Numbered from the stretch's first letter, positions 41,444 to 64,000 are shown. The stretch is 64,000 nt of DNA from Candidatus Poribacteria bacterium (GCA_965208325.1 OZ242326.1:4320001-4384000); one strand, 5' to 3'. Notes: generated from the letters alone by a model not told the origin. Program-made: numbers and translations.

Positions 41444-43636
41444 TTACTTCACTATCACCATCCGACGTAACGCGTTGTAATCACCTGCACGGAATTGATA
41501 GAAATAAGTACCGCTTGTGACGCGTTCGCCGTTTTGGTTCCGCCCGTCCCAATACGCTGCATTCGTTTTGTCACGGTAGATGCCGGACTTCTGATGTCCC
41601 ATGTCCAGCGTTCGCACAATTTGGCCGCTCTGGTCGTAGATGTTTAAGGTCACGAGTGCATCGTTTGCCAACTGATACGGTATCCAGGTTTCGGGGTTGA
41701 ACGGATTCGGGTAATTTTGAAGCAACACTGTCCGTTTAATGTCTCCCAACGTAGTCAAGAAATTTCCCAACGGTTCCACGCCGACTCCAATGCCGGTATA
41801 AGAGTCAAGTTCCCAAAGCAACACAGCCCCATCGTAACCCGAGCTAGCCAGGGTGCCTCCGTCAGGGCTGAATGCAAGGCTATGCACCCACAAGGAATGC
41901 CCATGGAGCGAAGCTAGGAGTTCCCACGAATCGGTGTCCCAGAGACGAACGTTACCGTCGATACCCCCACTGGCGAGTGTGCGTCCGTCGGGACTGAACG
42001 CAAGGCTATTGACGGAATACGCATTCGGGATATTAAGGGTTCGCAGCAGTTCTCCCTTATCAACATTCCACAATAAAATTGATTCCCTACCCCCGCTTGC
42101 GAGGGTGCTGCCTCCTGGGCTGAACGCAACGCTATAGAAAGGGCCTTTATGCTCATGCAGTTTTCGCAGTTGTTCTCCTGTATCTACGTCCCACAGAATA
42201 AGCGCCTCCCAACCCGCGCTTGCCAGCGTTCCTCCGTCCGGACTGAACGCCACGCTATTCAGATCGTGCATATCCACGGTGAGTGTATGCCTAGCGTTCC
42301 CAGCACCGGCGTCCCACAAACGTACGGTGTTGTCCCAACTCGCACTTGCGATAATACTGCCGTCCGGACTGAACGCAACGTCTTTAATCGGAGCCGTATG
42401 ACCCTCAAGCTTTAGCTGCTCTTCTCCGGTATCGGCGTCCCGCACACGGACCGTGTTGCCCCAACTCTCGCTGGCAATGGTTTCGCCGTCGGGGCTGTAC
42501 GCAACGCTGACGCTACCACCAAAATCGCCATCGCCAAACGAGCGTCTGTGTTCTCCCGTTTCGGAGTCCCAAAGCCGGACAGCGTCCCCACTCGCACTTG
42601 CGACTGTGCCGCCGTCCGGGCTGAACGCGACGCTGTGAACTTGGGGGTAGTGTCCGATGATAGTGCGTAGCAGTTTACCCGATCCGGCGTCCCACAGTCG
42701 GAAAGTCTGGTCATGGCTCAAACCGGCAATCGTGCGTCCGTCGGGACTAAATGTAAAGGTATAGCACCAATGCGATTCGTTAAGGCGCCGCAACTCTTCT
42801 CCGGTTGCGGAGTTCCACAATCGGACAACTTGCCCTTCCGCGCTAGCAAGGATGTTCCCATCCGGACTAAATGCGACTGTATCGACCGAACCCGAAGCGG
42901 AAAGTGTACGCAGATGTTGTCCGGTTGTTGCGTCCCATAGGCGGACAGTTTTGTCATTGCTGCCGCTTGCGAGGATGCTGCCGTCCGGACTGAACGCAAC
43001 GCTATACACGTACGCCGTATGCCCCCCCAGCGTGCTTAGGAGGTCTCCAGTATCGGCGTCCCACAGGCCGATGGTTCGGTCTGCGCCCGCGCTAGCGATA
43101 ATACTGCTATCCGGGCTGAACGCTAAGCCGTTGACCCAACTTCCGTACCCGTTGAGCGTGCGAAGATGTCTTCCCGTTTCTGCATCCCAAAGTTCAATAT
43201 CTCGGTTCCCAGTTTCGCTTGCGATGGTGCGTCCGTCGGGGCTGTACGCAAGGCTGTTTGCCGCGCCCGACCCTTTAATCGTTTGCAGATGTTTTCCCGT
43301 TGCGGCATCCCACAGTCGAATGTCATCGTTCCAACTTGCCCCGGCGATTGTGCTGCCATCGGGGCTAATCGCAATGCTGTCGACGTCCGTATTCCCGACA
43401 AACAGATCGGTTTCCTTATGAGTCGCCGTATCGTAAAGCCATACACCGATTCCACTGGCGACCGCGAGTCCGGTACCATCGGGCGTATAAGCAATTTCGT
43501 GAATCCGGCCTTGCCCAATGCGCAATTTGGCGCCTTCGGGCAGCCCCCATTGCAGAGAATGCTGGGCATAGCTTTGCGGTAAACACAGCGCGGCAACGAA
43601 TAACAAGCTGAATTTGAAAACCAATGCCTTCTTCAT
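41444..43636 (-). CDS. Secreted WD40-repeat protein with FlgD-Ig/T9SS-CTD-like C-terminal domain (paralogue 4)
   Basis: Signal peptide; ~13-14 VAFSPDG..LASGS.D..IRLWD repeats; QNYPNPFNPETWIPYQL...WDGRN..GE.V.SG.YFY. Confidence 0.9.
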   Translation of the reverse strand: MKKALVFKFSLLFVAALCLPQSYAQHSLQWGLPEGAKLRIGQGRIHEIAYTPDGTGLAVASGIGVWLYDTATHKETDLFVGNTDVDSIAISPDGSTIAGASWNDDIRLWDAATGKHLQTIKGSGAANSLAYSPDGRTIASETGNRDIELWDAETGRHLRTLNGYGSWVNGLAFSPDSSIIASAGADRTIGLWDADTGDLLSTLGGHTAYVYSVAFSPDGSILASGSNDKTVRLWDATTGQHLRTLSASGSVDTVAFSPDGNILASAEGQVVRLWNSATGEELRRLNESHWCYTFTFSPDGRTIAGLSHDQTFRLWDAGSGKLLRTIIGHYPQVHSVAFSPDGGTVASASGDAVRLWDSETGEHRRSFGDGDFGGSVSVAYSPDGETIASESWGNTVRVRDADTGEEQLKLEGHTAPIKDVAFSPDGSIIASASWDNTVRLWDAGAGNARHTLTVDMHDLNSVAFSPDGGTLASAGWEALILWDVDTGEQLRKLHEHKGPFYSVAFSPGGSTLASGGRESILLWNVDKGELLRTLNIPNAYSVNSLAFSPDGRTLASGGIDGNVRLWDTDSWELLASLHGHSLWVHSLAFSPDGGTLASSGYDGAVLLWELDSYTGIGVGVEPLGNFLTTLGDIKRTVLLQNYPNPFNPETWIPYQLANDALVTLNIYDQSGQIVRTLDMGHQKSGIYRDKTNAAYWDGRNQNGERVTSGTYFYQFRAGDYNALRRMVIVK

Positions 43637-43714
43637 TGAAATTTTCCTCCTTGTTGAGTTCGCGGGTGCATCTCCGCGATTTCTACTTTTGGCGTACGTC
43701 CCTTGATTTAAAGC

Positions 43715-44090
43715 CTGGCTGAAGAAGAAAAAGTTACATGAACGTTTGGAGTTCTCGACTATTCATTTCAGAATATTGATTCTGAACCAATACAAGAAGA
43801 AATTATAATCTTCAAGCGATTTGCCCGCGAGTTGTGAGATGTTCAATTGGAATATCCGACTCCCCGCACTAGTTCCATTACAACGAAGGCATTCATGCAA
43901 ACCTGTATTTGGTACGATAGGACCATTTACATGTAAATTATACACCATTAGATGATTTACTTCAACTTTGACGCGAAAAACCTGATGTATCAAGGCGCGC
44001 GACAGTTTGAATTCCGTCATCTAGAGTGTTGGGTTTTGCATCAAGCTGCGCAGATTGAACGAATCCTTTGGAGAATAACCGTGCTTCACA
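43715..44090 (+). pseudogene. Possible degraded AT-rich gene fragment between WD40 genes
   Basis: One + frame reads protein-like (…VLDYSFQNIDSEPIQEEIIIFKRFAREL*DVQLEYP…) with several stops. Confidence 0.3.
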
Positions 44091-44105
44091 CTGTTCTGTT
44101 AGGCG

Positions 44106-46322
44106 TTACTTAACAATCGCCATCCGCCTTAGAGAAGCGTAATCACCCGCGCGGAGTTGATAGTAATACGCGCCGCTTGTGACGCGTTCTCCGTTCTGGT
44201 TGCGCCCGTCCCAATACGCGGCGTTCTCTTTGTCTTGGTAGACCCCCGGTTTTTGATGTCCAATGTCCAACCTGCGTACGATACGGCCGCTCTGGTCGTA
44301 GATGTTCAAAGTCACGAGCGCATCGTCTGCCAACTGATACGGTATCCAAGTTTCGGGGTTGAACGGATTTGGATAATTCTGCAGCAACGCAGTGCGTTTG
44401 ATGTCGCCAAGAGTCGTCAAGTGATTTTCCCTCGGTTCGACCCCAACTCCGATTGAAGTGCGAAGATCCCATAACAACACGGTGCCGTCCCAACTCCCGC
44501 TGGCGAGGGTGCGTCCCTCGGGACCGAATGTAACGCTATAGACACCATCCGTATGGCCGGTAAGCGTTTGCAGGTGTTTGCCAGTATCAACATCCCAGAG
44601 GCGGATTCTCCGATCTGCATTCGCGCTCACGAGGGTGCCGCCATCAGGGCTGAAATCAACGCTATTGACCCATCCGCCATGCCAAGTAATCGTCCGAAGG
44701 TGTTTGCCGGTATCGACGTTCCACAAGCGGATGGATCTATCCCAACCGCCGCTTGCAAGCGTACTGCCATCTGGACTGAACGCAATGCTCTGGATGGATA
44801 GCGTGTGTCCTTTAAGGACGCGCAGCCTTTCACCGTTATCGACGTCCCATAGTACGATAGTGGTTTTACCCCCACTGGCGAGGATTTTGCCGTCCGGGCT
44901 GTACGCAAGGCTTGAAACCCCAAACCTAGGGGTATGTACGCTGCTCCGTGTTCGTAAGAGTTCACCGGTATCGGCATCCCAAATACGGACGGTATTGTCC
45001 AAACTTCCGCCAGCGACGCGGCGTCCATCAGGACTGAACGCAACCCCATAAATCGAATTCGTATGCCCCATGAGCGTCCGTACGTGTTCTCCAGTAGCCG
45101 TGTCCCACAGACGAATGGTTAGGTCGCGACTTCCGCTTGCGATGCGGCGTCCATCCGGACTGAACACGACGTTCGTGACGTGCTTCTCATGCCCGGTGAG
45201 TGTGTGCAAGTGATCGCCGGTATTGGCGTCCCATAGGCGAACAGTTTCGTCCCCCCAGCTGCCGCTGGCAACCGTTCCGCCGTCTGGACTAAATGCGACA
45301 CTTCTGACCGAGCCCGTATACCCTGTCAGCGTTCCTAAGTGTTTGCCAGTAGCGGCATCCCACACGCGGACGGTACCGTCCCAACTCCCGCTTGCGAGTG
45401 TGCGTCCATCGGGACTGTACGCAACAGTGCCAACCCAATCCGTGTGTCCGTTTAGCGTTTGCAGGTGTTCGCCTGTTATTGTGTCCCACAGGCGGATTGA
45501 ATCGTCCCAGCTTCCGCTCGCAATGGTGCCGCCGTCGGGGCTGAACAAGACACTATTGACCGAATGCGTATGGCCGTTTAGTGTTCGCAGCCGTTTTCCC
45601 GTATTAGCATCCCATAGTAGGATGGAATTATCGTCACTACCGCTAACAATCGTATCACCGTCGGGGCTGAATGAAACACTGTGTACCGGATTCGTGTGAT
45701 CGTCTAGCGTTAGCAGGTGTTTTCCCGTAGACGTGTCCCATAGGCGGATTGTGGTATCTCTACTCCCGCTTGCGATGGTGCCGCCATCGGGACTGTACGA
45801 GACGATAATGACGTTGTCTGTATGCCCGCGGAGCGTATGCAGACTCTTTCCCGTTTCCGAGTCCCACAAATGGATGGTATTGTCGTAAGTCCCTCCTGCT
45901 AAAGTATCGCCGTTGGGACTGAACGAAACGTTAATCACCCAATCCCCGTAACCGTTCAGGGTTCTAAGGCGATTTCCCGTTTCCACATCCCACATACTGA
46001 GGATGTCCACACCGTCACTGGCACTGGCAATTGTACCCCCGTCGGGACTGAACGAAAAACCGCTAATTACTCCTGTATCCCCGGTAAGGAATGCGGCTTC
46101 TTTATGGGTTTCTGCATCGTAAAGCCATATTCCGATGCTGCTGGAAACTGCAAGTCGTTTGCCGTCTGGTGAATACTGTATTTCGCCTATCGAACCTCTA
46201 CCGAGCCGCGCTTTGGCGATTTCGGGTAGATGCCATTGAAGAGAATCTTGGGCGTAGCTGAATGGTACACATAGCGCGGCAACGAAGAAATAGTTAAGCT
46301 TGAAAATTGTGGATTTTTTCAC
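44106..46322 (-). CDS. Secreted WD40-repeat protein with FlgD-Ig/T9SS-CTD-like domain (paralogue 3)
   Basis: Same architecture; GTG start with GGAGG RBS. Confidence 0.9.
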   Translation of the reverse strand: MKKSTIFKLNYFFVAALCVPFSYAQDSLQWHLPEIAKARLGRGSIGEIQYSPDGKRLAVSSSIGIWLYDAETHKEAAFLTGDTGVISGFSFSPDGGTIASASDGVDILSMWDVETGNRLRTLNGYGDWVINVSFSPNGDTLAGGTYDNTIHLWDSETGKSLHTLRGHTDNVIIVSYSPDGGTIASGSRDTTIRLWDTSTGKHLLTLDDHTNPVHSVSFSPDGDTIVSGSDDNSILLWDANTGKRLRTLNGHTHSVNSVLFSPDGGTIASGSWDDSIRLWDTITGEHLQTLNGHTDWVGTVAYSPDGRTLASGSWDGTVRVWDAATGKHLGTLTGYTGSVRSVAFSPDGGTVASGSWGDETVRLWDANTGDHLHTLTGHEKHVTNVVFSPDGRRIASGSRDLTIRLWDTATGEHVRTLMGHTNSIYGVAFSPDGRRVAGGSLDNTVRIWDADTGELLRTRSSVHTPRFGVSSLAYSPDGKILASGGKTTIVLWDVDNGERLRVLKGHTLSIQSIAFSPDGSTLASGGWDRSIRLWNVDTGKHLRTITWHGGWVNSVDFSPDGGTLVSANADRRIRLWDVDTGKHLQTLTGHTDGVYSVTFGPEGRTLASGSWDGTVLLWDLRTSIGVGVEPRENHLTTLGDIKRTALLQNYPNPFNPETWIPYQLADDALVTLNIYDQSGRIVRRLDIGHQKPGVYQDKENAAYWDGRNQNGERVTSGAYYYQLRAGDYASLRRMAIVK

Positions 46323-46432
46323 TGGAATCCTCCTCCGATTTTGCGTTGTGCATCCAAAAATACTCGTTCTATGTATCGTCAGACAACAATTTTATTAGAA
46401 ATACTCGGATTATCACCTCCAATCGTTATGTG

Positions 46433-48640
46433 CTATTTCAATATCACCATCTGCCTTAACGAAGTGTAATCGTCCGCGCGAAATTGATAATAATATCTGC
46501 CGCTCGCGACCGGTTCCCCGTTATGATTGCGGCCGTCCCAATATGCTGCGCTTGCTTTGTCTCGGTAGACGCCCGTTCTTTGAAGTCCAATGTCGAGTGT
46601 GCGGATAACATGACCGCTCTGATCATAGATGTTCAGCGTCACGAGCGAATCGTTTGCCAACTGATACGGTATCCAGGTTTCCGGGTTGAACGGATTCGGA
46701 AAGTTTTGCAGCAGCGCTGTCCTTTTAATGTTTCCCAGCGTAGTGATTTGACTTCCCAATGGTTCTACACTCAAAGCAATTAAAGAGGTAAGGTTCCACA
46801 CCAACACGGTCCCGTCCGAACTTCCACTGGCGAGCGCGCGTCCATTGACATTGAACGCAACGCTCCGGACCTCGTCCGTATGTCCAATTAAGGTTACCAA
46901 ATGTTCTCCAGATTTGGCTTCCCACAGCCGGACAGTATAGTCACCGCCTCCACTAGCGATGGTTTTGCCATCGGGACTGAACGCAACACTGTTTACCCTA
47001 GCCTCGTGCCCAGTCAGCGTTCGTAGGTGTTTTCCCCTATTAGTGTCCCAAAGACGGATGGTAGCGTCCGCACACCCGCTGGCGACGGTGCGTCCATCGG
47101 GGCTAAACGCAACGCTCCAAACCCAATCCGTATGTCCTTCAAGTGTTCGCAGAAGCCTTCCAGTAGCTGTTGCCCAGAGACGGACTGTATGGTCTCCACC
47201 TCCGCTGGCGATATTGTGTCCATCTGGACTGAACACAACGCTTTCCACGGGCAATGCGTGCCCATTGAACGTGCGCAGCCGTTTTCCGTTATTAACGTCC
47301 CAGAGATGGATAGAAGTGTCCGCGTTCCCGCTCGCTATTCTCTGTCCATCCGGGCTGAATGCAACGCTTATCACCGCCAACGTATTCCCTTTAAGCGTAC
47401 GTAGGGGTTTTCCAGTATCGGTGGACCACAGTTGAATGGTACGGTCCCAGCTTCCACTGGCGACGGTGCCGCCATTGGGACTAAACGCTACACTAGGAAC
47501 CGCCGATTTATGCCCCTCTAAGGTTCGCAGGTGAATTCCCGATTCGGGGTTCCACAAACGAATGTATCGGTCATTACTTCCACTCGCAAGCGTATCACTA
47601 ATGGGATTGAACGCAACGCTCTTCACCGGCCTTGTATGCCCGGCGATTGTTCTCCGGAGTTCCCACGAATGGCCGTCCCACAGACAGATTGTCCCGTCCA
47701 AACTCCCGCTGGCGAACATGCCGCCATCGGAACTGAATGCGACGCTGTCGACCCAATGCGTATGCCTGACGAGCGATCGAATGGGTTTGCCCGTATCCGC
47801 CGCCCACAGCCGAATTGTGTCGTCCAAGCTGCCGCTCGCAATCATGAGTCCATTGGGACTAAATTCAACGCAATTGACCATAGCATCATGTCCCAGGAGA
47901 GTTTGCAGGTTGTCACCAGTATCGGCGCTCCACAGTCGAATGGCATTGTCGCCGCCTCCGCTGGCAATAGTCCCGCCGTCCGGACTAAAGGCTACACTCC
48001 GCACCGAATCCTCATGCGCTTTTACTCTCCAAAGTCGTTCCCCGGTGCGGACGTTCCACAGGCGCATTGTATTATCCGCACCCCCGCTAACGAGCATGCT
48101 GCCGTCGGGGCTGAACGCGACACCATAAACCCAGGACGTGTTCCCAGTAAGCATTCTCAAATAATCGCCGGTATCGGCGTCCCACAGTCGGATGGTACGG
48201 TCTCCGCTTCCGCTTGCGATAATATCCCCATTAGGACTGAAGGCGACACTATTCACCGGACCCGTATGCCCTGTGAGCGTTTGCAGGTGATGGCCAGTAT
48301 TGGCATCCCACAGACGGACCGAACGGTCCTGGCTCCCGCTGACAAGCCTACTGCCATCGGGGCTGAACACTACGCTCCAGACTCGACCCGTATGCCCGGT
48401 CAACAAGGCGACCTCTTGACGCGTCGCCGGGTTGTAGATCCAAATACCGATGCTGCTAGCCACCGCAAGGCGCGTGCCGTTGGGGTAAAATTGTATTTCA
48501 TTTATCCTGCCCTTACCCAGCCGCGTTTTAGCACCTTCAGGTAAGCCCCATTGGGGAAAATCATGTGCAGTGCTGTGTGATAGACAGAATGCGGTAGCGA
48601 AAAAATATGCACTTAATTTGAAAAACAACGCTTTCACCAT
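46433..48640 (-). CDS. Secreted WD40-repeat protein with FlgD-Ig/T9SS-CTD-like domain (paralogue 2)
   Basis: Same architecture; GGAGG RBS. Confidence 0.9.
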   Translation of the reverse strand: MVKALFFKLSAYFFATAFCLSHSTAHDFPQWGLPEGAKTRLGKGRINEIQFYPNGTRLAVASSIGIWIYNPATRQEVALLTGHTGRVWSVVFSPDGSRLVSGSQDRSVRLWDANTGHHLQTLTGHTGPVNSVAFSPNGDIIASGSGDRTIRLWDADTGDYLRMLTGNTSWVYGVAFSPDGSMLVSGGADNTMRLWNVRTGERLWRVKAHEDSVRSVAFSPDGGTIASGGGDNAIRLWSADTGDNLQTLLGHDAMVNCVEFSPNGLMIASGSLDDTIRLWAADTGKPIRSLVRHTHWVDSVAFSSDGGMFASGSLDGTICLWDGHSWELRRTIAGHTRPVKSVAFNPISDTLASGSNDRYIRLWNPESGIHLRTLEGHKSAVPSVAFSPNGGTVASGSWDRTIQLWSTDTGKPLRTLKGNTLAVISVAFSPDGQRIASGNADTSIHLWDVNNGKRLRTFNGHALPVESVVFSPDGHNIASGGGDHTVRLWATATGRLLRTLEGHTDWVWSVAFSPDGRTVASGCADATIRLWDTNRGKHLRTLTGHEARVNSVAFSPDGKTIASGGGDYTVRLWEAKSGEHLVTLIGHTDEVRSVAFNVNGRALASGSSDGTVLVWNLTSLIALSVEPLGSQITTLGNIKRTALLQNFPNPFNPETWIPYQLANDSLVTLNIYDQSGHVIRTLDIGLQRTGVYRDKASAAYWDGRNHNGEPVASGRYYYQFRADDYTSLRQMVILK

Positions 48641-48706
48641 TGAAACGATCCTCCGTTAGCAGACCGAACATAGCGTCACTACTTTTCTCACCCGAAGTGT
48701 ATGGCG

Positions 48707-50911
48707 CTACTTCAAAATCACCATCTGCCTTAACGACGTATAATCACCCGCGCGAAGTTTATAGTAATACGAGCCGCTTGGGACGCGTTCTCCGTTTTGA
48801 TTGCGTCCATCCCAATACGCTGCGCGCACCTTGTCTCGGTAGATTCCCGATTTTTGATGTCCAATTTCGAGTGTGCGGACGATATGACCGCTCTGGTTGT
48901 AGATGTTCAACGTCACGAGCGCATCGTCCCCCAACTGATACGGAATCCAAGTTTCGGGGTTGAACGGATTCGGAAAATTTTGCAGCAGCGCTGTCCGTTT
49001 GATGTCTCCCAAGGTGGTAATGCGGTTTCCCAACGGTTCCACGCCAAATGGTATCGAAGAGGGAAGTTCCCACAGCAATACGGTGCCGTCCCCACTCGCG
49101 CTGGCGAGTGCGCGTCCGTCGGCACTGAACGCAAGGCTTCGGACTTCACCTGTATGCCCTGCGCGCACTTGCAGTTTTTTTCCCGTATGGATGTCCCACA
49201 AGCGAATGGTACAGTCCACACCGCTACTGGCGAGTATTCGCCCATTGGGGCTGAACGCAAGGCTTAAGACCCAATTCGTATGCCCTTTGAGCGTTCGCAG
49301 ACGTATTCCGGTATCAGTGTCCCACAGACGGATGGTAAGGTCACCACTCCCGCTAGCGAGCGTTCTGCTATCGGGACTAAATGCTACGCTCGTAACCGAA
49401 TTCGAATGTCCTTTCAGCGTTCGCAGGTGATTTCCGGTATGGGTGTCCCACAGACGCACCGTAGTGTCGCGGCTGCCGCTAGCAATCGTGCCACCGTCTG
49501 GGTTAAACGCAACAACTTCAACCTCGCTATTATGCCCCATGAAGGTCAGCAGCAGTTTTCCGGTATCGGTGTCCCGCAGCCGCACTGTACCGTCTCGTCT
49601 CCCGCTAGCAATTGTTCGCCCATCCGGACCGACCGCAACGCAACTGAACCCTATCCCTTGCCCGTCGTGGGTTCGCAGGCGTCTTCCGGTATCGGTGTGC
49701 CACAGACTTATGGTATCGTGTGCACTTCCACTTGCGATAGTGCGCCCATCGGGACTGAATCCAATGCTAAATACGCTTGATGAATGCCCCTTCAGCGTTC
49801 GCAGGTGTTTTCCCGTATCGGCATCCCGCAGTCGGATTGTATGGGTTTCACCGCTGTACGCGATGATGCTGCTATCGGGACTAAACACAACGCTATAGGC
49901 CCCTAACGTATATCCTTTGAAGGTTCGGCGGTGATTTCCGGTATTGGCGTCCCACAGACGGATTGTAGTGTCGTCGCTCCCACTTGCGATGGTGCCGCCA
50001 TCAGGACTGAACGCTACGGTATCAACATCATCCTTATGACCTATGAGCGTTCGGCGGTGTTTTCCGGTATTGGCATTCCATAGACGGATTGTGTCGTCCC
50101 GGCTCCCACTAGCAATGGTGCGACCATCTGGACTGAACGCAACACTATAGACGGCAGATTCATGTCCCGTAAGCGTTTGGCGGTGTTTTCCGGTATCGGC
50201 GTCCCACAGGCGAATAGTCTTGTCCCAACTCCCGCTTGCAATTGTACGTCCATCGGGGCTGTACACAACCTTAACGATGCCGTCTTCATGCCCCTTGAGC
50301 GTTTGCAGAAGTTTTCCAGTATCGACGTCCAACAGTCGAATAGAGTTGTCCCCAATCGCACTAGCGATGGTGCGGCCATCTGGACTGAACGCAACACTAG
50401 AATGCAAACCCCCACGCAAACCATCCCTGAATATATGCAGGAGTCCTCCGGTGCGGGCGTTCCACAGACGGATGCTGCCCAAACCCGTACTAGCGATGGT
50501 ACGGCCATCTGGACTGAACGCAATGCTAGAGATCCAATTGCTATGGTTGAGCGTTCGAAAGGGTTTTCCCGTGTCGGTGTCCCATAACCGAATAGTATAG
50601 TCCCAACTCCCGCTAGCAATTGTGCGGCCATCCGGACTGAACGCAACGCATTTGACATAGTATGAATGCCCGTTGATTAGGGCGACCTCTTGATAGGTCT
50701 CCGTATCGTAAAGCCAAATTCCGATGCTACTGGCAACAGCAAGTCGAGTGCCGTCAGGCGAATACTGAAGTTCACTTATTTCGCCTTTACCGAAGCGTGC
50801 TTTAGCGTCCTCGGGACGACCCCATTGCGGAGAGTCTTGGGCAAAGCTGGGCGGTAGATATAGGGAGGTTACTAACAGTAAGCTAAGCTCGAAAACAATC
50901 GCCTTTTTCAT
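48707..50911 (-). CDS. Secreted WD40-repeat protein with FlgD-Ig/T9SS-CTD-like domain (paralogue 1)
   Basis: Same architecture; GGAGG RBS. Confidence 0.9.
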   Translation of the reverse strand: MKKAIVFELSLLLVTSLYLPPSFAQDSPQWGRPEDAKARFGKGEISELQYSPDGTRLAVASSIGIWLYDTETYQEVALINGHSYYVKCVAFSPDGRTIASGSWDYTIRLWDTDTGKPFRTLNHSNWISSIAFSPDGRTIASTGLGSIRLWNARTGGLLHIFRDGLRGGLHSSVAFSPDGRTIASAIGDNSIRLLDVDTGKLLQTLKGHEDGIVKVVYSPDGRTIASGSWDKTIRLWDADTGKHRQTLTGHESAVYSVAFSPDGRTIASGSRDDTIRLWNANTGKHRRTLIGHKDDVDTVAFSPDGGTIASGSDDTTIRLWDANTGNHRRTFKGYTLGAYSVVFSPDSSIIAYSGETHTIRLRDADTGKHLRTLKGHSSSVFSIGFSPDGRTIASGSAHDTISLWHTDTGRRLRTHDGQGIGFSCVAVGPDGRTIASGRRDGTVRLRDTDTGKLLLTFMGHNSEVEVVAFNPDGGTIASGSRDTTVRLWDTHTGNHLRTLKGHSNSVTSVAFSPDSRTLASGSGDLTIRLWDTDTGIRLRTLKGHTNWVLSLAFSPNGRILASSGVDCTIRLWDIHTGKKLQVRAGHTGEVRSLAFSADGRALASASGDGTVLLWELPSSIPFGVEPLGNRITTLGDIKRTALLQNFPNPFNPETWIPYQLGDDALVTLNIYNQSGHIVRTLEIGHQKSGIYRDKVRAAYWDGRNQNGERVPSGSYYYKLRAGDYTSLRQMVILK

Positions 50912-51028
50912 TGGAATAATCCTCCATGCAAGCGTTCGGGATATATCTTCTCAATCTCTAATGGGTTATTCCAGAGATTTATCGGACGTGCAAAGTGAAC
51001 TAGGCTCTTAATCTTGGCGATTGTACGA

Positions 51029-51646: not shown

Positions 51647-52693
51647 TTATCTTGCCGATGTACTGTCCAACTGCTTGACCCATCCCCAACTCAGCGGCTG
51701 CTTGCCCGCGGGAGATACGGCAAATTCGACGACAAAATCGGGATCAAACCAAGCGGGTCCCCGGTTAATCGATCCAGCTTCTCCAATAACCGGCAGGTTA
51801 AACCGATTTTCGTGATTTCCTTTTCCAGCTGCATTCTTCACATCGTAGATGACTATCCAAGCGGAACCGCCCGCGAACATAATCGTTGCTACTTGCTTGT
51901 CGTTCGGATTCCAGGTTATATCTTGTTTTTCTTCCTGGCTAAAGATTTCAAATACGTTTTGGGCTCCATCTTCGCCAACTTCGGCGTCCATTACCCACAC
52001 GTTTCCGGTTCCGTCTCGCCGCGTAATCCATGCAATCCGGTCTCCTTCAAACGAAAATTCCGGCTGAATATCCTCGCCCTTATGATTTGTGTAATTCACC
52101 TGGTTTCCGCCATCGGAATTCATCACGTAGATGTCTCCGAGCGTGCGTCCGCGTTTGGATGAGAACGCAATCCGCCGACCGTCCGGCGACCAAGATGGCA
52201 TTTTGTCTGGGGCGGGGTCGTTTGTGAGATTGGCAATAATATTGCCACCATCCGACATTACATAAATTTCGAGGTTCCCGTCCCTATTAGAAGCGATGGC
52301 GAGCTTTCTGCCGCCAGGGTGCCAATCGGGCCAGCTATCTACGCCTTCATGATCGGTGATTCGCCGCAGATTCTTGCCGTTGGCGTCTACGATATAGATG
52401 TCGGTATTTTTCTGTGAAGTCGCATGGAAGGCGAGTTTGCGGCCATCCGGTGACCATTCAAGTCCAAGCGGCCGCGGGTCTTCGTTATCTGTTGCAAGGT
52501 TGAACAATGCATTCACAGCACCGCCGCCTTTCCCTTCAGGATTAGTCAAAAAAATTGTCTCCTCGCCGGATACAGCTATTGTCGCTTCGTTGGGTGCGAT
52601 CGCCTGCCCGCCCATAGGAAAAACGAGGTTGATTAGGATTACTAATTTGGAGAATGCCAAGATTCTCAAAGTCAATAGCGTTCTGTTTTGCAT
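51647..52693 (-). CDS. TolB-like (PD40-repeat) beta-propeller exported protein with C-terminal VxP..WG.VK motif
   Basis: WSPDGRKLAF and SNRDGNLEIYVM repeats; GAGGAGG RBS before ATG 52693. Confidence 0.85.
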   Translation of the reverse strand: MQNRTLLTLRILAFSKLVILINLVFPMGGQAIAPNEATIAVSGEETIFLTNPEGKGGGAVNALFNLATDNEDPRPLGLEWSPDGRKLAFHATSQKNTDIYIVDANGKNLRRITDHEGVDSWPDWHPGGRKLAIASNRDGNLEIYVMSDGGNIIANLTNDPAPDKMPSWSPDGRRIAFSSKRGRTLGDIYVMNSDGGNQVNYTNHKGEDIQPEFSFEGDRIAWITRRDGTGNVWVMDAEVGEDGAQNVFEIFSQEEKQDITWNPNDKQVATIMFAGGSAWIVIYDVKNAAGKGNHENRFNLPVIGEAGSINRGPAWFDPDFVVEFAVSPAGKQPLSWGWVKQLDSTSAR

Positions 52694-52854
52694 AAGTCTT
52701 TCCTCCTCTTTACAATTTGAAAATTCACGGCAAACGCCGTCTATCCAAAAACTGTCCGAGAACCAATTGGAATAGTAAATTAATTTGGATCGAGTGTTGT
52801 GCTGCACCTTATTTTCAACTGTATGGCTCGCAAATTCTGCACGTGCCGTAGTGC

Positions 52855-54327: not shown

Positions 54328-54405
54328 CTTCCGTGTCGCCTCCGATTCGTATTAGTAAGCGCGGCATGGGACCTATAATTCAACTGCGCCGCCAGTACAA
54401 AGCCT

Positions 54406-55434
54406 TTATTCTGGCCTGTAAATCCCTGTGCCTAGCTGTTTAATCCAACTCCAGGTCAAGGGGCGCTTTTTGCCGGGCGATACTGCATACGGCACAACAA
54501 AGTCCGGGTCAAACCAATCCGGAGAACGGCTGCCTTGCCATTCTGCGCCAAGCGGCAAGACTTTTCCATCTGCACGTACATCGTCGACAACCTTATCTGA
54601 TTCCATCACGGCAATTTCCACAAACGGAGCATCTGAAAGGACGAGCATTGTTCCATCGGGAGACCACGCCGGGTCAAAGTTACATCGCGGCCCAGGCGTG
54701 AGGTTTTTCACGTTTTCACCGTTGGCGTCCATGGTGTGCAGATCGCCCGTCCCATTGCGCCTAGATGTCCAGACAATCTTTTGGCTGTTCGGCGACCAAC
54801 GGGGATAGCTGTCATCGCCGCGGTGGTTAGTCAAATTCAAGGGGTTTTCACCACTCGCATCCATCGTGTATACATCTGAAATAGTTCTACCCCGCTTGGA
54901 AGCGAAGGCAATCATTCGACCGTCGGCTGACCAATCAGGTTGCCTGTCGGGAGCAGCGTCGTTAGTCAGGTTCACCCCGACGTTCCCGTTAGCTGTCAAT
55001 GTGTAGATTTCGTAATTGCCATCCCGATTGGTGGTGAACGCAAGCCGTTGTCCGCTAGGATGCCACGTGGGCCAACTATCCTCGGCTTCATGGTTGGTCA
55101 GTCTCTTGAGCTTCTCGCCATCGGCGTTAACCACGTAGATATCAATGTTGCCGTCCAACTTGGTATGGAACGCCACCCTTTGTCCATCTGGCGACCACCT
55201 AACCCCTAACGGCTGTTCGTCCGCTTTAAGCCGTAAATCAATTAACGGACGAAGATTTGCACTGTCGGGGTCCATCAGCCAAAGGTCGCCTTCCGGTTGG
55301 CTGCTCGAAAACACAATGGTCGGATCCTCGGGTGCCCGCTGCGCAATTGCGCCGGACGCAACAACCATGCTGCCAATAAGGAACGTAGTTACTGAAAATA
55401 CAAGCCGCGTTGCGAATGGTATTCTATGTTGCAT
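54406..55434 (-). CDS. TolB-like (PD40-repeat) beta-propeller exported protein
   Basis: Paralogue of 51647-52693; C-terminal VSPGKKRPLTWSWIK. Confidence 0.85.
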   Translation of the reverse strand: MQHRIPFATRLVFSVTTFLIGSMVVASGAIAQRAPEDPTIVFSSSQPEGDLWLMDPDSANLRPLIDLRLKADEQPLGVRWSPDGQRVAFHTKLDGNIDIYVVNADGEKLKRLTNHEAEDSWPTWHPSGQRLAFTTNRDGNYEIYTLTANGNVGVNLTNDAAPDRQPDWSADGRMIAFASKRGRTISDVYTMDASGENPLNLTNHRGDDSYPRWSPNSQKIVWTSRRNGTGDLHTMDANGENVKNLTPGPRCNFDPAWSPDGTMLVLSDAPFVEIAVMESDKVVDDVRADGKVLPLGAEWQGSRSPDWFDPDFVVPYAVSPGKKRPLTWSWIKQLGTGIYRPE

Positions 55435-55478
55435 TCGTGTTTTCTCCTCTCGCTGTTTCAGAGTTGCCGGTTAGAGAT

Positions 55479-55507
55479 ATTTTATAACTAACGGCTCCAA
55501 TTGTCAA
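55479..55507 (-). promoter_or_regulatory. Sigma70-type promoter
   Basis: Minus strand TTGACA-N17-TAAAAT, 45 bp upstream of 55434. Confidence 0.6.
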
Positions 55508-55638
55508 TCAATTTAAAGGGCGATTGCGTAACTGCTCATTGGGAAGGAACGTACGGTATTCGTGCCTGACTCGACGTTTCAGCGTCTGCGTTAGCCTGCA
55601 TTTAAACGACGGTCCGCGGATATTTGACAACTGTTGCA

Positions 55639-57546: not shown

Positions 57547-57612
57547 GAACTAACCTCATTTTTGTGGATGAATTAAATCACTATGGATAAATAGCGTAGG
57601 GGCTAGGAATTT

Positions 57613-58665
57613 TCAGTCTCGCGGCCCTAAATTTTTTATCCATCCCCACGTAAGCGGGCGCTTGTCAGCAGGCTCAACATCGAATGGCGGCGCTGGAAAT
57701 GCGGGGTCGAACCAAGCTGGAGACCGGGCGCGCCTGCCTTTATCTAGCACAAGAATCTGTAAGAAATTTTTCGCCGCCTTGAGGTCCGCTTCGAGCGTTT
57801 CTCCAACGCCAAGCTCGTCGATTGCGTGGTAAAGGAAGATGCCTTGCGGGAATGACAGGGAGGCGATGCTTTTGCCGTCTGGAGACCATGTAGCATCCTT
57901 CTTCTCCTCGGTGCTCTTTACCCACCGCTGATTTTCGCCATCCGAATCAATGATGTAGATGTCACCCGTGCCGTCTCGCCGAGATACCCACGCCAATGTT
58001 TCACCGTCAGGCGACCACCTCGGTTGAATATCCTGGCCTTTATGATTGGTGATATTCTGCAGATTTTCGCCTTTCGAATCCATCACATAGATATCTGCAA
58101 TCGTGCGGCCTCGCTTGGTCGAAAACGCAATCTTTCGCCCGTCAGGCGACCAAGACGGGTCAATATCGGGCGCAGCGTCTGCTGTGAGGTTTCCGCCGAC
58201 ATTGCCTTGCGCCGTCATGGTGTAGATTTCAAAATTCCCGTCACGGTTGGTGGCGAACGCCAGTTTTTGACCGCTCGGATGCCACGTGGGCGAGCTGTCT
58301 TCCGCCTCATGCTCGGTAAGCCTCCGCAAATTTTTCCCGTCGGCGTTCACGGAATATACGTCAATGTTGTCCTTCAAGTTAGTATGGAAAGCCAACATTT
58401 CACCGGTTGGGGACCATACCAAGCCCGCCGGCACCGGCTCGCCGTCAATTTCTAATACCAAGAAAGGAGGGTTTACACCTGCCGGATCCATTGACCAGAT
58501 GCCTACTTCGCCCGCCACACCGTCGGTGCCCACGACTATCGTTGGCACCATTGGTGCTTGAGCCTGCCCGCTCTGGAGCGGAGCAATACAGTTTATGAGA
58601 AGCACGCCGATGAACACGACCGGCATGAATATGTCCCGGATCTGAAGGTTTTGTCGGATTTGCAT
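57613..58665 (-). CDS. TolB-like (PD40-repeat) beta-propeller exported protein
   Basis: Third paralogue; GAGGTG RBS; C-terminal VEPADKRPLTWGWIK. Confidence 0.85.
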   Translation of the reverse strand: MQIRQNLQIRDIFMPVVFIGVLLINCIAPLQSGQAQAPMVPTIVVGTDGVAGEVGIWSMDPAGVNPPFLVLEIDGEPVPAGLVWSPTGEMLAFHTNLKDNIDVYSVNADGKNLRRLTEHEAEDSSPTWHPSGQKLAFATNRDGNFEIYTMTAQGNVGGNLTADAAPDIDPSWSPDGRKIAFSTKRGRTIADIYVMDSKGENLQNITNHKGQDIQPRWSPDGETLAWVSRRDGTGDIYIIDSDGENQRWVKSTEEKKDATWSPDGKSIASLSFPQGIFLYHAIDELGVGETLEADLKAAKNFLQILVLDKGRRARSPAWFDPAFPAPPFDVEPADKRPLTWGWIKNLGPRD

Positions 58666-58817
58666 GGTTATCACCTCATCGTGTTGGTTAAGGTTAATGG
58701 ACAATCGCTAAGAGAATCCGGGAAGACGAATTCCTCGGCGCATTTACGCTCGGTATTGCCTGTGAAAACTCGACCGGTTTTTAGCTTGTTGAAACACGCG
58801 GTGAAGGCGGTTAAATA

Positions 58818-60563: not shown

Positions 60564-61371
60564 CCGCCGGGTGGTGTCCCATGCGTGTAATGCACCGAGC
60601 TAACTGCGGCCCATTTGCCCATGACCCGCCCCGCACCACGCGCCGACTGCCCACATCAGGACCCGCCGGGTTTTCGGTAGGGCTGCGATAGTAATAAGAT
60701 TCAGAAAACCAATCTGCGACCCACTCCCAGACATTGCCGCCCATATCGTATACGCCGTACGGGCTTGCGCCAGTCGGAAATTTCCCGACAGGCGCCAAGA
60801 CGTTGTCATATCCGTCTCGCCCATTCCACACATTTGCGTGGACATTTGCGCCGCGTATCGAAACGAAGAAGGCATTCCCCCACGGCCAAACACGTTGGTC
60901 GGTTCCCCGAGACGCTTTCTCCCACTCCGCTTCGGTGGGCAGCCGCTTATTCGCCCATTTGGCATACGCGTCCGCTGCGGCCCAAGAAATACCCACAACG
61001 GGATAGTTCGGCTTGGACTGCGCAATCTCGGGCCAATCCCCCAGTCCGACCTCCTCGCCGTAACTGACTGGAGTGTGCTTACTGCGCTCTCCGCCATCCG
61101 ACATCCAGAAGGCAAAATAATCCGCGTTGGTGACCTCGTGTTTGTCGATGTAATAAGCGTCAATCGAAATCTGGTGCGCTGGTTTCGCGCCAATTCCCCC
61201 GGCATCGTCGCCCATGGTAAATTCACCGCCCGGTATCAACACCATCCCGCCGGGCGGGGTCAATGGACGCGGCGTTTCGGCCCCCTCGGCGTGCCCATGG
61301 GTTATCGGGAGATGCAGGACAGCCCAGAAGAAACAGAATAGATTGAAGGATAAACGGCAGTTTGCTGACAT
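60508..61371 (-). CDS. SUMF1/FGE-sulfatase domain protein
   Basis: IPGGEFTMG, EVTN, RLPTEAEWEKA, DMGGNVWEW, RGGSW and GFR. Confidence 0.9.
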   Translation of the reverse strand: MSANCRLSFNLFCFFWAVLHLPITHGHAEGAETPRPLTPPGGMVLIPGGEFTMGDDAGGIGAKPAHQISIDAYYIDKHEVTNADYFAFWMSDGGERSKHTPVSYGEEVGLGDWPEIAQSKPNYPVVGISWAAADAYAKWANKRLPTEAEWEKASRGTDQRVWPWGNAFFVSIRGANVHANVWNGRDGYDNVLAPVGKFPTGASPYGVYDMGGNVWEWVADWFSESYYYRSPTENPAGPDVGSRRVVRGGSWANGPQLARCITRMGHHPAVGTSFIGFRLAKDIDNQP

Positions 61372-61382
61372 CGTAACGGGTT

Positions 61383-62621
61383 CTATTTTTCAGTTGTGAG
61401 ACGCTGATAGACGCGGTATTCCTCTTGCGCCTTGGCGGTGTCTCCTGCGAATTCATAGGTTTTCGACAGATTCAAGCGAAAACGCGGTTCGGAAGGATCC
61501 AAATGAATCGCATTTTGATAGGCTTCAATGGCTTGGCGATATTCCGTCATCATCAAATAAACACTGCCGAGACCGTTATGATACGCCGCAACATCAGGGC
61601 GGCGCTTTACAACTTCCTGGTATGCCTTCAATGCGCGCCCGTAGGCTTTCAATCGAAAATAGACGAATCCTAAGGCTTCATAGCTCCGCACAGATTCAGG
61701 GTCGAGCGCGATGCACTTTTCAAAGGCGAAGACAGCGGCGCCCCATTGCGCCCGTCCCACTTGGAGGCGGCCCAATGCATACCAGGCATCCCGGTTCGCC
61801 GCATCGCCGCCTACGATGCGCTGCAAACGCTCAATCTCTTCCCCTTCTTGCGTCAGCCGTTGAAAGGTTTCTAACGCCTCTGCCGCCTCCTCCGACAAGC
61901 CCATGCGGTGGTAGCAGTTGCCGAGGTTCAAGTATGCCTTGGCATTGAACGGATCTTGTTCGATTATCCGTTGGAAGAGTGTGCTCGCCGCTTCAAATTC
62001 TCCGCGCTGGAAATAAGCCAATCCGAGCGTATAATACGATTCCAATCGCGAAGGGTCGAGTTCTGCGGCGCGCCGGAGTTCGTGAATCGATTTATCCAGG
62101 CGTTGCTGCCGGAAGTAGGCTAAACCTAAAAGCCGTCGGCTCTCTGCATGATGCGGATCCATTTCGACCGCTTTCTGCAGCGGCGGAATTGCCTTCGACA
62201 CCTGCGCCAACACCTTTAGGTAAGTATCGCCTAATTTGTAATGGGCTTCGATGTAGTCCGGGTCGGTTATTGCGGCTTGTTGAAATGCACGCGTTGCGCT
62301 TTGCCACTTCTGTTGCGACCCGTAGACCATCCCCAAGTAATAGTGTGCGTCAGCGAGCGACGAATCCAGTTCTACGGCGCGTTGAAACGCTGCCTCCGCC
62401 TTATCATAATCTCGATGAAATATAGCCCGCTGCCCTTCGTCGTAGGCGCGAAGCGCCTGGTGGGCATCGGATTTCGCATGTGACGCTGCTATAGCGCGGA
62501 AGGTCAGCGCTAAAAAAAACACGCCAACCAGAATTGGTGTGTTCAGCGTAATTAGACCACTTTTCATAACATCGCAAAATGCGAATAGATAGGGGAAAAC
62601 CCGCCATGCGTAAGTGCACAC
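61383..62621 (-). CDS. Exported tetratricopeptide-repeat protein (true start probably ~62567)
   Basis: Signal-like segment followed by tandem TPRs. Confidence 0.85.
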   Translation of the reverse strand: MCTYAWRVFPYLFAFCDVMKSGLITLNTPILVGVFFLALTFRAIAASHAKSDAHQALRAYDEGQRAIFHRDYDKAEAAFQRAVELDSSLADAHYYLGMVYGSQQKWQSATRAFQQAAITDPDYIEAHYKLGDTYLKVLAQVSKAIPPLQKAVEMDPHHAESRRLLGLAYFRQQRLDKSIHELRRAAELDPSRLESYYTLGLAYFQRGEFEAASTLFQRIIEQDPFNAKAYLNLGNCYHRMGLSEEAAEALETFQRLTQEGEEIERLQRIVGGDAANRDAWYALGRLQVGRAQWGAAVFAFEKCIALDPESVRSYEALGFVYFRLKAYGRALKAYQEVVKRRPDVAAYHNGLGSVYLMMTEYRQAIEAYQNAIHLDPSEPRFRLNLSKTYEFAGDTAKAQEEYRVYQRLTTEK

Positions 62622-62713
62622 GACGGGATTTTCCCGAATTCAAATTCAATCAGAGCGCCGCGAATTGCTAACGGCCAACAATACTAGCGTCGCTGCAGTT
62701 GAGGTTAAATTAG

Positions 62714-63595
62714 CTATCTGCGGGTTTTTATATCCCCCCATGTTGTGGACAGTTTTTCAACCGGTGCAACACCGAGCGCAGTCGTAACGCCAAGCCCATC
62801 ATTCATGATGGCAGCGATTTCTTCTCCGCTCAAAACCCGGCTGAATACCCCGATATCGTCCACTGTAACCTGTGCGGAAGAGCCATACCTGCCGCAAATA
62901 TGCCACGGACCGTGTTCATTGGTCCGAACAAACGGCTCCGTTCCGGGACCGCGATTAACAATTTTACCATTCTGGTATATCACTGTCTCTTTACCATTTC
63001 CCGTAAAGGCGTAGTGGTTCATCTCGTCGCCGTTTGCGGGGAACCACCAACGATGGTCCAGGCGAGGCTTGCCGTATTGCCACAGGACAAACTCGCCCTC
63101 GCCATCATCCCACGGAAAGTGAACCAGAATTCGGTTGTCCCACGGCCCGCCGGGTTCAAATGAGAAGAGATCTTTTTGGGCAAAGGTGCCGATTTTGTCG
63201 TTTCGCTGCACCCATGCGGTTATTGTAATCTCTGTCTCCTTGGGAAGATTGCCGGCATCCGCTTCGTCTTCGTCAGGCCCTAACCGCTCATCCTTGATGA
63301 AGTTTGGGACTATGATAACGCTGCCCTCGCCTTCACATTTCAGAGCCGTGCCGAATTTGCCGTCAACCCACGACGGCCTTAGCGCATCGCTGTCAGGACG
63401 ATTACCTTGCAGCCTGCCGTCCATGTCGTGGGGGTTGCCCGACGCGTCATTGGCAGTGACTCCTTCCCCCTCATCAAATAGCCAAACGGCAATAATGTCG
63501 TCGGGGTCGAGTGCGGCATGAGTCGGGGCTGTCACCATAATCCCGAACAATGAAACGGCGCTGACGCATACCAGCGTTCTTAGCATGAGTTTCAA
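62714..63595 (-). CDS. LamG-like jellyroll domain exported protein with C-terminal TTWG.IK motif
   Basis: W.FDEGEG..A.DASGN, W.DGKFGTAL and DDIGVFSRVLS; GGAGG RBS ~9 nt before TTG 63595. Confidence 0.85.
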   Translation of the reverse strand: MKLMLRTLVCVSAVSLFGIMVTAPTHAALDPDDIIAVWLFDEGEGVTANDASGNPHDMDGRLQGNRPDSDALRPSWVDGKFGTALKCEGEGSVIIVPNFIKDERLGPDEDEADAGNLPKETEITITAWVQRNDKIGTFAQKDLFSFEPGGPWDNRILVHFPWDDGEGEFVLWQYGKPRLDHRWWFPANGDEMNHYAFTGNGKETVIYQNGKIVNRGPGTEPFVRTNEHGPWHICGRYGSSAQVTVDDIGVFSRVLSGEEIAAIMNDGLGVTTALGVAPVEKLSTTWGDIKTRR

Positions 63596-63785
63596 TTTGC
63601 ATTTCCTCCATCTACAGCCGGTACGGTATAGGATGGCCGAATGCTGCCGCTGTAGAAAAACCCATCCCGTATACCTGTACACGGCGAGTTTTTCAAATAT
63701 TGAATCTACATACAACGGCGCCAGTTGCTAAACTGCAAGCAAAACACCACTCGCGCCGTTGTGGTTATGGGTAGAAATCTCTTAG

Positions 63786-64000
63786 CTAATTTTTGGTTTT
63801 TATCACCCCCCATGTTGTTGATATTTTTTCATCCGGTTGAACATCAAGAGCCGCCGCGGCGGCAAGCCCGTCGAGCATGATAGATGCAATTTCACCTTGG
63901 GTCAATACCCGGCTAAATACGCCGATGTCGTCCACTGTAACCTGAGCGGAAGAGCCAAACCTGCCGCAAATATGCCATGGACCGTGTTCATCGGTCCGAA
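63786..64000 (-). CDS. 3' end of a second, closely related LamG-like paralogue (truncated by window edge)
   Basis: My translation gives RTDEHGPWHICGRFGSSAQVTVDDIGVFSRVLTQGEIASIMLDGLAAAAALDVQPDEKISTTWGVIKTKN*; not in the ORF track. Confidence 0.85.
   Translation of the reverse strand, partial: RTDEHGPWHICGRFGSSAQVTVDDIGVFSRVLTQGEIASIMLDGLAAAAALDVQPDEKISTTWGVIKTKN

Follow-up and report, generated by a model that had tools for sequence, protein, structure and literature searches.

A transmembrane-free C-terminal tag shared by exported binding proteins of Candidatus Poribacteria

The tag and the proteins that carry it

The 64,000-nt window analysed here (positions 4320001-4384000 of GCA_965208325.1 OZ242326.1, the single contig of 4,707,648 bases that was searched as the Candidatus Poribacteria genome) contains nine genes whose products share a short peptide, here called the tag. 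It is a portable peptide, located strictly at the C-terminus or directly ahead of a C-terminal domain (CTD) of a type IX secretion system (T9SS), carried by exported binding modules and under selection at the level of the protein. The nine genes are listed in Table 1. Those encoding three TolB-like and two LamG-type proteins have the tag at the C-terminus, followed only by a short tail, and in the products of the remaining four it lies between a WD40 propeller and a CTD, each time exactly 96 amino acids (aa) before the stop and continuing directly as RT[AV]LLQN[YF]PNPF. All nine instances had been described in an initial annotation of the window, and each was recovered by pattern scan and profile in the place and arrangement given there. 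No other open reading frame (ORF) of the window matches the profile, so that the neighbouring TPR, FG-GAP/ASPIC and SUMF1 proteins lack the motif, as had been observed, and the DUF4159 protein does likewise. By Pfam the untagged neighbours are assigned to DUF4159, FG-GAP/ASPIC and FGE-sulfatase.

Table 1. Tagged genes of the window; coordinates are counted from its first nucleotide
Gene	Strand	Product	Length (aa)	Tag	Following the tag	Evidence
41444..43636	-	WD40 double-propeller, signal peptide	730	41735-41785 (internal)	T9SS type-A / FlgD-Ig CTD (last 96 aa)	Pfam, profile
44106..46322	-	WD40 protein	738	44397-44447	CTD	Pfam, profile, CTD aligns with paralogues
46433..48640	-	WD40 protein	735	46724-46774	CTD	Profile, paralogue alignment
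48707..50911	-	WD40 protein, last 150 aa modelled	734	48998-49048	CTD	Profile, paralogue alignment, AlphaFold2
51647..52807	-	PD40/TolB-like single propeller	386 (ORF)	51674-51724 (terminal)	8-aa tail	Pfam, profile
54406..55434	-	PD40/TolB-like propeller, modelled whole	342	54439-54489 (terminal)	10-aa tail	Pfam, profile, AlphaFold2
57613..58704	-	PD40/TolB-like propeller	363	57634-57684 (terminal)	6-aa tail	Pfam, profile
62714..63715	-	LamG (Laminin_G_3) protein	333 (ORF)	62726-62776 (terminal)	3-aa tail, TRR	Pfam, profile
63786..64000	-	Second LamG-type protein, C-terminal part, cut by window end		63798-63848 (terminal)	3-aa tail, TKN	Profile

The family model TIGR04183 matches residues 642-728 of the WD40 protein at 41444..43636 with 31.3 bits (cut-off 23), the tag ending at residue 634. 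The same model gives 20.5 bits on the protein at 44106..46322, which is under the cut-off. The second LamG-type protein is complete in the genome, where its ORF comprises 312 aa.

The extent of the family was determined with a 17-column hidden Markov model, built from strict matches to the motif and iterated over the whole genome, translated in six frames into 28,642 ORFs of 60 aa or more. There are 135 matches at E<=1, of which 122 are at E<=0.01. The tag ends 1-14 aa short of the stop in 123 of the 135 and exactly 96 aa before it in 12, and none of the matches at E<=1 places it anywhere else. Thirteen off-position matches all fall within a weaker tier of 21 with E between 1 and 10, and a reversed ORF set used as control gave no match at E<=1, so that chance falls far short of accounting for the tag. 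A profile scan of this kind had been proposed in the initial annotation, and it returned 135 carriers without random positions. What had been taken for nine proteins of three families is in fact a set of about 135 proteins from 13 BLAST clusters, with six or more Pfam families represented, and the functional unit, given previously as 15 aa, reaches two residues further upstream, to [LF][AS].

The consensus of the tag is [LF][AS]V.P.[GED]K[LR].TTW[GA].[IL]K. Among the 135 sequences V is present in 131, P in 111, K8 in 111, W in 123 and K17 in 133, with Arg in place of K17 in the other two. There is no hydrophobic run of transmembrane length in the consensus, as had been noted from the nine instances. 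In the phylum as a whole the tag is some 17-20 residues long, and after it come 0-14 residues, polar or basic for the most part and not conserved past the final Lys. The tails of the 123 terminal tags of this genome number two of 1 aa, nine of 2 aa, 47 of 3 aa, 17 of 4 aa, 15 of 5 aa and 18 of 6 aa, with 15 longer and none of zero length. The preferred tail is about 3 aa on LamG proteins and 6 aa on PD40 proteins; tail length thus follows the passenger family, and the counts are not independent. The last residue of the tail is most often R (29), N (18), E (14), K (13) or D (10), and is Y in six, F in five and W in one.

The full codon set is used at V3, P5, T11, T12, G14 and K17: four codons each for Val, Pro, Thr and Gly, and two for Lys. 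This free synonymous variation indicates that selection acts on the peptide and not on an RNA or DNA element, and such an element is ruled out as the identity of the motif.

The novelty that had been claimed for the motif stands in that no Pfam or NCBIfam family was found on the tag in profile searches of the carriers. Eleven tag-only tails of 40 aa gave no NCBIfam match at E<=10. A search of the literature, covering the main text of papers, found no description of the tag, and it appears to be still without one in print.

After removal of the tag the carriers form 13 BLAST clusters. The largest contains 73 of the 135 and is LamG-type (~270 aa). A second contains 46 beta-propellers, made up of ~25 single PD40 proteins (~330 aa), ~9 double PD40 proteins (~630 aa) and 12 WD40 proteins with a CTD, and the remaining carriers are spread over eleven small clusters. 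The Pfam families represented among the carriers are Laminin_G_3, PD40, WD40, 3keto-disac_hyd/DUF1080, Cohesin and DUF3108_like, the last three being added by a search of 16 representatives (two, one and one, respectively, with no match in six of the 16). The recognisable passengers are all non-catalytic binding folds, built as beta-rich modules.

The carriers are exported. A hydrophobic stretch occurs within the first 75 aa of 125 of 133 carriers compared with 940 of 2594 other genes (>=200 aa), an enrichment test that bears out the signal-like N-termini described for the original set. A lipobox-like pattern in the first 60 aa is present in at most seven of 135. With the hydrophobic leader common and the lipobox rare, the carriers are proteins of the type exported by Sec and processed by signal peptidase I. 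Altogether the tag is carried by ~3% of the genes, roughly one in thirty.

Presence of the tag is not simply a property of the fold. Among the best 120 database relatives of the TolB-like protein, 43 are tagged, all 3-14 aa from the end, and these are close relatives of ~330 aa. The 77 others listed are more distant PD40 proteins without the tag, some of which end in a T9SS CTD instead.

Two carriers were modelled with AlphaFold2. In the last 150 aa of the WD40 protein at 48707..50911 (24 paralogous rows) the propeller strands are confident and the blocks of the CTD have predicted local distance difference test (pLDDT) values of 89-94, and between them the tag (residues 40-54 of the model) is coil without secondary structure, with pLDDT <50 at residues 44-52. 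The TolB-like protein at 54406..55434, modelled whole from 40 rows, has a propeller with pLDDT >90, and residues 320-342, comprising the tag and its tail, fall below 50; a weak helix at residues 328-335 is also below 50. The tag is thus predicted to lie outside both folds, and not to form a strand of either passenger or CTD. A structural role within the passenger had been named as an outcome that would undermine the initial annotation, and both models leave the tag outside the confident domains.

The junction with the CTD and the secretion machinery

By a loose pattern the genome encodes 49 CTD proteins, 14 of which have a tag-type junction and 35 other junctions. The 12 pre-CTD tags detected by the profile continue as RTALLQN[YF]PNPF. 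The last Lys of the tag is located at -8 from [YF]PNPF in 12 of the 14 and replaced by Arg in the other two, so that no linker separates the tag from the CTD. In the 35 proteins with other junctions the corresponding region has P at -9 in 27, K at -8 in 14 and T at -6 in 29. Some of these junctions contain modules of their own, such as the helix-like ...RG.L.LEQLL..L.PKET... and ...ANAV.S..LD..G.PK.T.... Counting the tag, at least three alternative conserved pre-CTD modules occur in the genome, and of these only the TTLG tag also stands alone as a C-terminal tail.

The terminal and pre-CTD forms differ at two positions. Position 13 is W in all 123 terminal tags and L or F in all 12 pre-CTD tags of this genome, where K8 is also mostly lost; the absence of a conserved Lys-8 from the pre-CTD form indicates that the two are under different constraints. 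The rule that W marks the terminal tag and L the tag ahead of the CTD, put forward from the nine instances, is therefore complete within this genome, but not beyond it. Among the best 120 metagenomic relatives of the tag plus CTD region, a tag-type junction is present in 77 (by regular expression) and W occurs in 12. The passengers of the tag plus CTD arrangement among these listed relatives are WD40, FG-GAP_2, LRR, PD40 and FG-GAP/ASPIC proteins.

This type of CTD is found well beyond the phylum, the titles of the loci including Ignavibacteria, Calditrichia, Latescibacterota, Gemmatimonadota, Cloacimonadota, Zixibacteria and KSB1. In none of 36 CTD loci not titled Poribacteria does a tag precede the CTD; the sequence ahead of it is [IV]P..[FY].L.QNYPNPF. 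For Prevotella intermedia, PMC11969387 describes CTD cleavage sites located by mapping at a conserved motif, within the coil that joins the passenger to the CTD, and a new C-terminus that is amide-linked to glycan after cleavage. By analogy of position, the tag would occupy the zone in which PorU-type sortases cut CTDs.

The genome matches the models of T9SS components to varying degrees. The PorU sortase model NF033707 matches a 2092-aa protein at genome 4021620-4027898 with 427.4 bits (cut-off 420), and a 2116-aa paralogue with 364.7 bits. Both carry Propeptide_C25, Peptidase_C25 and a FlgD_ig CTD. The His and Cys of the PorU-type protein align with the catalytic pair of RgpB. An acidic residue aligns with RgpB Asp163 of the S1 pocket; P. 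gingivalis PorU aligns in the same way, and so no conclusion on cleavage specificity follows. Each of 61 Poribacteria genomes has PorU-like homologues at E<=1e-10, and most of them have two or three. A gene for a MoxR-type ATPase follows the PorU-like gene, at genome 4027980.

TIGR04183 domains on poribacterial WD40 proteins were noted earlier, and structural Por genes were not found in poribacterial single-cell genomes, according to Kamke 2014 (PMC3909097). Unlike that report, the complete genome does encode an enzyme that is PorU-type as judged by its sequence. A 2188-aa SprA-like protein scores 160.6 bits, under the cut-off of 200, and the PorV model matches ten places in the genome with at most 104 bits against a cut-off of 250. 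A complex predicted from a PorV-like barrel (residues 27-364) and an alignment of the 40-aa tag-only tails scored 0.01 against a mark of 0.32, and gives no answer either way. The models for GldL and GldM have no match in the genome, and their controls also matched nowhere.

Other export and anchoring systems were sought in the same way. There is no match to exosortase (PF09721) in the genome, where the control was detected in M. jannaschii, and none to PEP-CTERM (TIGR02595) at E<=0.01, with a silent control. The search for a Slam-type translocon (PF04575) found no match and is uninformative because its control was silent. The genome has two secretins, which nothing ties to the tag, and one gene for a YkuD-family L,D-transpeptidase (58.2 bits, above its cut-off).

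Distribution and genomic neighbourhood

The distribution of the tag was followed with a profile of 24 positions made from 25 tags. A first look gave 39-349 candidates in each Poribacteria genome, and up to 72 from each were scored, a cap that most genomes reached. The profile matches all 121 Poribacteria genomes, covering eight families and 19 genera. The tag is therefore universal in Poribacteria, and it is nearly absent outside. It was found in none of five single genomes from other CTD-bearing lineages, in one of 61 genomes from the phylum of a locus titled Krumholzibacteriia, and in two of 61 from that of a locus titled Latescibacterota. The three outsider genomes have one or two matches each, which resemble true tails on LamG-type proteins and could be either bin contamination or gene transfer, the two being indistinguishable. 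On viral contigs a narrow tag alignment matched ten stretches, none of which was confirmed by tblastn.

In five deep-branching Poribacteria genomes the tag retains V, P, K, W, [GA], [IL] and K. Of 54 distinct tags at >=9 bits from these genomes six end at the final Lys itself, 46 add 1-4 residues and two add 32-37. The short tails very often end in K or R, and some tags close as ...IK or ...IKK. In one deep-branching genome three proteins, two of them scoring >=9 bits, have a tag followed by only 32-37 residues that start in the manner of a CTD (...Y.QYPN...); from its sequence this stretch may be a CTD that has been greatly shortened.

Of the carriers, 133 are called genes, and these form 62 runs of 1-7 genes. 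Their most prominent neighbours are PhyH-type oxygenases, which Kamke 2014 (PMC3909097) describes as the most abundant, phylum-specific Pfam family of Poribacteria. PhyH genes lie within three genes of a carrier in 29 of 74 cases and within two in 25 of 74, compared with 254 of 3780 for the background, an odds ratio of 7.7. An N-terminal hydrophobic stretch is present in one of 77 PhyH proteins listed across four BLAST families (74 distinct genes), and since nearly all lack a leader they are cytoplasmic. Only 14 of 72 LamG carriers have a PhyH gene within two genes. The physical intermingling of these two phylum-specific expansions points to a place for many of the tagged lectin-like proteins in clusters for substrate capture and catabolism. 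Within the window, the gene run 51647-63715 is an example.

Other families are also found near carriers. TPR genes lie within three genes of a carrier in 11 of 36 cases (background 9%, p=3.5e-4), FG-GAP/ASPIC genes in five of 16, and genes for DUF6785/DUF6784 membrane proteins in eight of 27. The TPR neighbours were set aside as a receptor for the tag: they are a mixed set, of 226-1058 aa for those no more than two genes from a carrier, and many are the usual partners of FG-GAP/ASPIC genes. The ESM-Atlas neighbours of DUF6785/DUF6784 include a cluster with OPT (oligopeptide-transporter family) on 11% of its members, and these proteins may be an uncharacterised permease family. They resemble OPT-type transporters and not sorting enzymes, and are rejected as the tag reader. 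One of the 27 paralogues, a multi-transmembrane protein of 642 aa, is encoded in the window at 37918-39846 (+).

The gap between this gene and the next contains a tandem array (39903-40290) of ~2.5 copies of a GC-rich ~160-nt unit, the copies being 87% alike; it is the source of a spurious 263-aa ORF at 39597-40388. The next gene, at 40412-41347 (-), encodes an exported 311-aa protein with at least six CxxCH haem-binding motifs, a multihaem cytochrome c that adjoins the WD40 array. Between two of the tagged TolB-like genes lies that of the DUF4159 protein (52855-54327 (-), 490 aa), which has an N-terminal transmembrane segment and a Pro-rich linker. Contigs from RNA libraries (two runs of one sponge study, 90-95% identity) overlap the TolB-like and LamG genes in part, 51634-52037 among the stretches covered. 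Such libraries can hold DNA and the contigs come from relatives, which makes them a weak hint of expression, and a stretch without coverage carries no meaning.

Possible functions of the tag

The tag falls outside every described sorting signal. It is most closely associated with the T9SS type-A CTD (TIGR04183 / PF18962 / FlgD_ig-like PF13860), which is likewise C-terminal on unrelated Sec-exported passengers and which it directly abuts in 12-14 proteins of this genome, where a PorU-type sortase, an SprA-like protein and PorV-like barrels are encoded. However, the tag has 17-20 aa compared with 45-100 aa for the CTD, and has neither the beta-sandwich nor the motifs B, D and E. It lies ahead of the TIGR04183 match, 123 of 135 carriers have no CTD, and other phyla have the same CTD type without the tag (absent from all 36 loci; present in only three of 122 genomes of two phyla). 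The short T9SS CTDs of Prevotella intermedia show that these signals can shrink, and there too a conserved cleavage-site motif precedes the folded CTD, but they have 43-55 aa with three beta-strands and motifs B, D and E (PMC11969387), whereas only 0-14 aa follow the tag.

The PEP-CTERM/exosortase, LPXTG/sortase and GlyGly-CTERM/rhombosortase systems resemble the tag in being short, portable, C-terminal and lineage-specific on many unrelated exported proteins. The likeness to their tripartite signals is loose, consisting of a signature (V.P..K), a mildly hydrophobic stretch and an often basic end; the tag has no transmembrane helix, its hydrophobic part is ~8 residues long, and its consensus contains neither LPXTG nor the transmembrane segment of sortase substrates. 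An outer-membrane beta-signal is a poor match because the passengers are soluble folds and a terminal Phe or other aromatic residue is rare. In its manner of working the tag could be compared with the dockerin-cohesin system, in which a small C-terminal module on many passengers attaches them to a common scaffold, although a dockerin is a folded domain of ~70 aa that binds Ca and has known partners. Cohesin-domain proteins are themselves found among the carriers.

We give an even chance to the reading of the tag as a docking or retention signal without a transmembrane segment, bound by a putative shared partner in the envelope. After export of the binding module by Sec, the tag would serve as a handle held non-covalently by this partner, and so work like a miniature dockerin or an address label and not as a sortase substrate. 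A minority of proteins (WD40 here; FG-GAP, LRR and PD40 elsewhere) have a T9SS type-A CTD fused immediately behind the tag. With the last Lys of the tag at -8, in the coil zone cut by PorU-type sortases, removal of the CTD by such an enzyme would expose a mature C-terminus resembling the stand-alone tag. We infer that the tag is read at all, that it is bound non-covalently and that its two forms lead to the same mature C-terminus.

The initial annotation had proposed a sorting or anchoring signal. That proposal stands in so far as the tag is portable, strictly positional, independent of the passenger and found on exported proteins. A simple version in which the protein is cleaved after the motif is disfavoured by the six of 54 deep-branching tags that end at the last Lys. 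These, together with tails of 0-4 aa in the deep lineages, indicate that a leaving group of the sortase type is not required, and the zero-length tails argue against obligatory cleavage after the final Lys.

Several observations weigh against docking on a shared partner. With W13 absent and K8 mostly lost from the pre-CTD form, the two forms may differ in function. Simple docking does not predict the fixed preference in tail length, or the absence of zero-length tails among the 123 of this genome, for which shared ancestry within families may be a cause. The tag-only proteins lack T9SS-like motifs B, D and E, leaving their passage across the outer membrane unexplained if the receptor is on the surface. 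No obvious tag reader was found among the PhyH, TPR and OPT-like permease neighbours of the carriers. Lastly, low pLDDT is no proof that the tag is disordered.

To our knowledge, every short bacterial C-terminal sorting signal described so far includes a membrane helix and has an enzyme embedded in the membrane as its reader, and the only large signal without such a helix is the T9SS CTD, a folded domain. A disordered tag of 17-20 residues would, if true, point to a novel recognition system. It would offer a way to study how this dominant sponge symbiont, which is uncultivated, arranges its many lectin-like and 'eukaryote-like' repeat proteins, suspected to mediate contact with the host and with polymers derived from it. 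As a one-line pattern the tag would predict the exported 'binding proteome' of Poribacteria, and as a peptide it could be used as bait for the receptor.

A wider form of the docking proposal is doubtful, though it deserves mention. The tag would then be the first short C-terminal sorting signal of a diderm without a transmembrane segment, defining a phylum-specific display system for ~3% of the proteome. The same docking C-terminus would be gained either directly or by T9SS export and CTD removal, with both kinds of protein held on one envelope receptor, and the tagged lectin-like proteins would form the substrate-capture arm of PhyH catabolic clusters.

Among the alternatives, the one that survives best is unlikely: that a PorU-type C25 transpeptidase recognises the tag, cuts after its final Lys and couples the new C-terminus to a surface glycolipid, with the CTD or the tail as leaving group. 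The tag does end at the CTD boundary with its Lys at -8, enzymes with a His/Cys dyad are present in two to three copies per genome across the phylum, none of the 123 terminal tags of this genome ends at the Lys itself (the modal tail being 3 aa), and T9SS cargo is amide-linked at its cleaved C-terminus (PMC11969387). On the other hand six deep-branching tags end exactly at Lys and many have a 1-aa tail, the residues past the Lys are not conserved, and the tag-only proteins, without a CTD, lack the means to reach a PorU located at the surface. Cleavage by P. gingivalis PorU is moreover described as sequence-independent (PMC4804311).

The conserved Lys might instead be attached to peptidoglycan. 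In such a tether, similar to that of Braun's lipoprotein, a Lys 0-3 residues from the C-terminus would be cross-linked by an L,D-transpeptidase, fixing periplasmic binding proteins to the wall. The near-invariance of K17 (Arg in its only two replacements), the lineages in which tags end ...IK or ...IKK and the single YkuD-family gene fit this scheme, and PD40/TolB-type proteins are typically periplasmic. Yet Braun's lipoprotein is a lipoprotein with Lys as its last residue, whereas the carriers are not lipoproteins, and the tag Lys comes after a long conserved motif and usually has 1-14 residues behind it. Tails of 3-14 aa in many cases end in residues other than Lys, the conservation of V, P, K8 and W is left unexplained, and tags also precede the CTDs of proteins bound for the outside. 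We regard this tether as improbable.

An anchor at the membrane interface has a similarly slim chance. PBP5 and MinD are attached peripherally to the membrane by C-terminal helices, and K-L-x-T-T-W-G-x-I-K could be modelled as a short amphipathic helix lying on a leaflet, with L, W and I at i, i+4 and i+7 flanked by Lys. The helix at residues 328-335 of the TolB-like model is in keeping with this, but its pLDDT is <50, the hydrophobic face comprises just three residues in the LamG-type tag, and the strong conservation of the upstream V.P..K suggests recognition by a protein.

Slightly less probable again is a role in periplasmic handling, with the tag as a chaperone site or a degron for a tail-specific protease that steers the folding or turnover of exported beta-rich proteins. 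It would account for a tag that is terminal, modelled as disordered and passenger-independent on carriers that are all beta-rich modules. We know of no precedent for a 17-aa phylum-specific degron on ~3% of genes, however, and the fixed fusion to CTDs would be unexplained.

That the tag is a cytoplasmic modification site for the PhyH-type 2-oxoglutarate oxygenases is very unlikely. These genes are enriched within two genes of carriers, and the expansion of PhyH (PMC3909097) is Poribacteria-specific like the tag. Against this, a leader is present in just one listed PhyH protein, most LamG carriers have no PhyH gene within two genes, PhyH diversity suggests small-molecule catabolism, and one generic tag needs no dozens of enzymes.

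Least probable of all is that the tag has no function of its own and is an inherited family tail, a linker or a structural strand: a single LamG cluster does account for 73 of the 135 carriers, the counts being inflated by paralogy, but a family tail or fold element is ruled out by the unrelated folds that carry the tag, the more distant PD40 relatives of the same fold that lack it (77 of the 120 listed), its position outside the modelled folds and its conservation across 19 genera in which the flanks are not kept.

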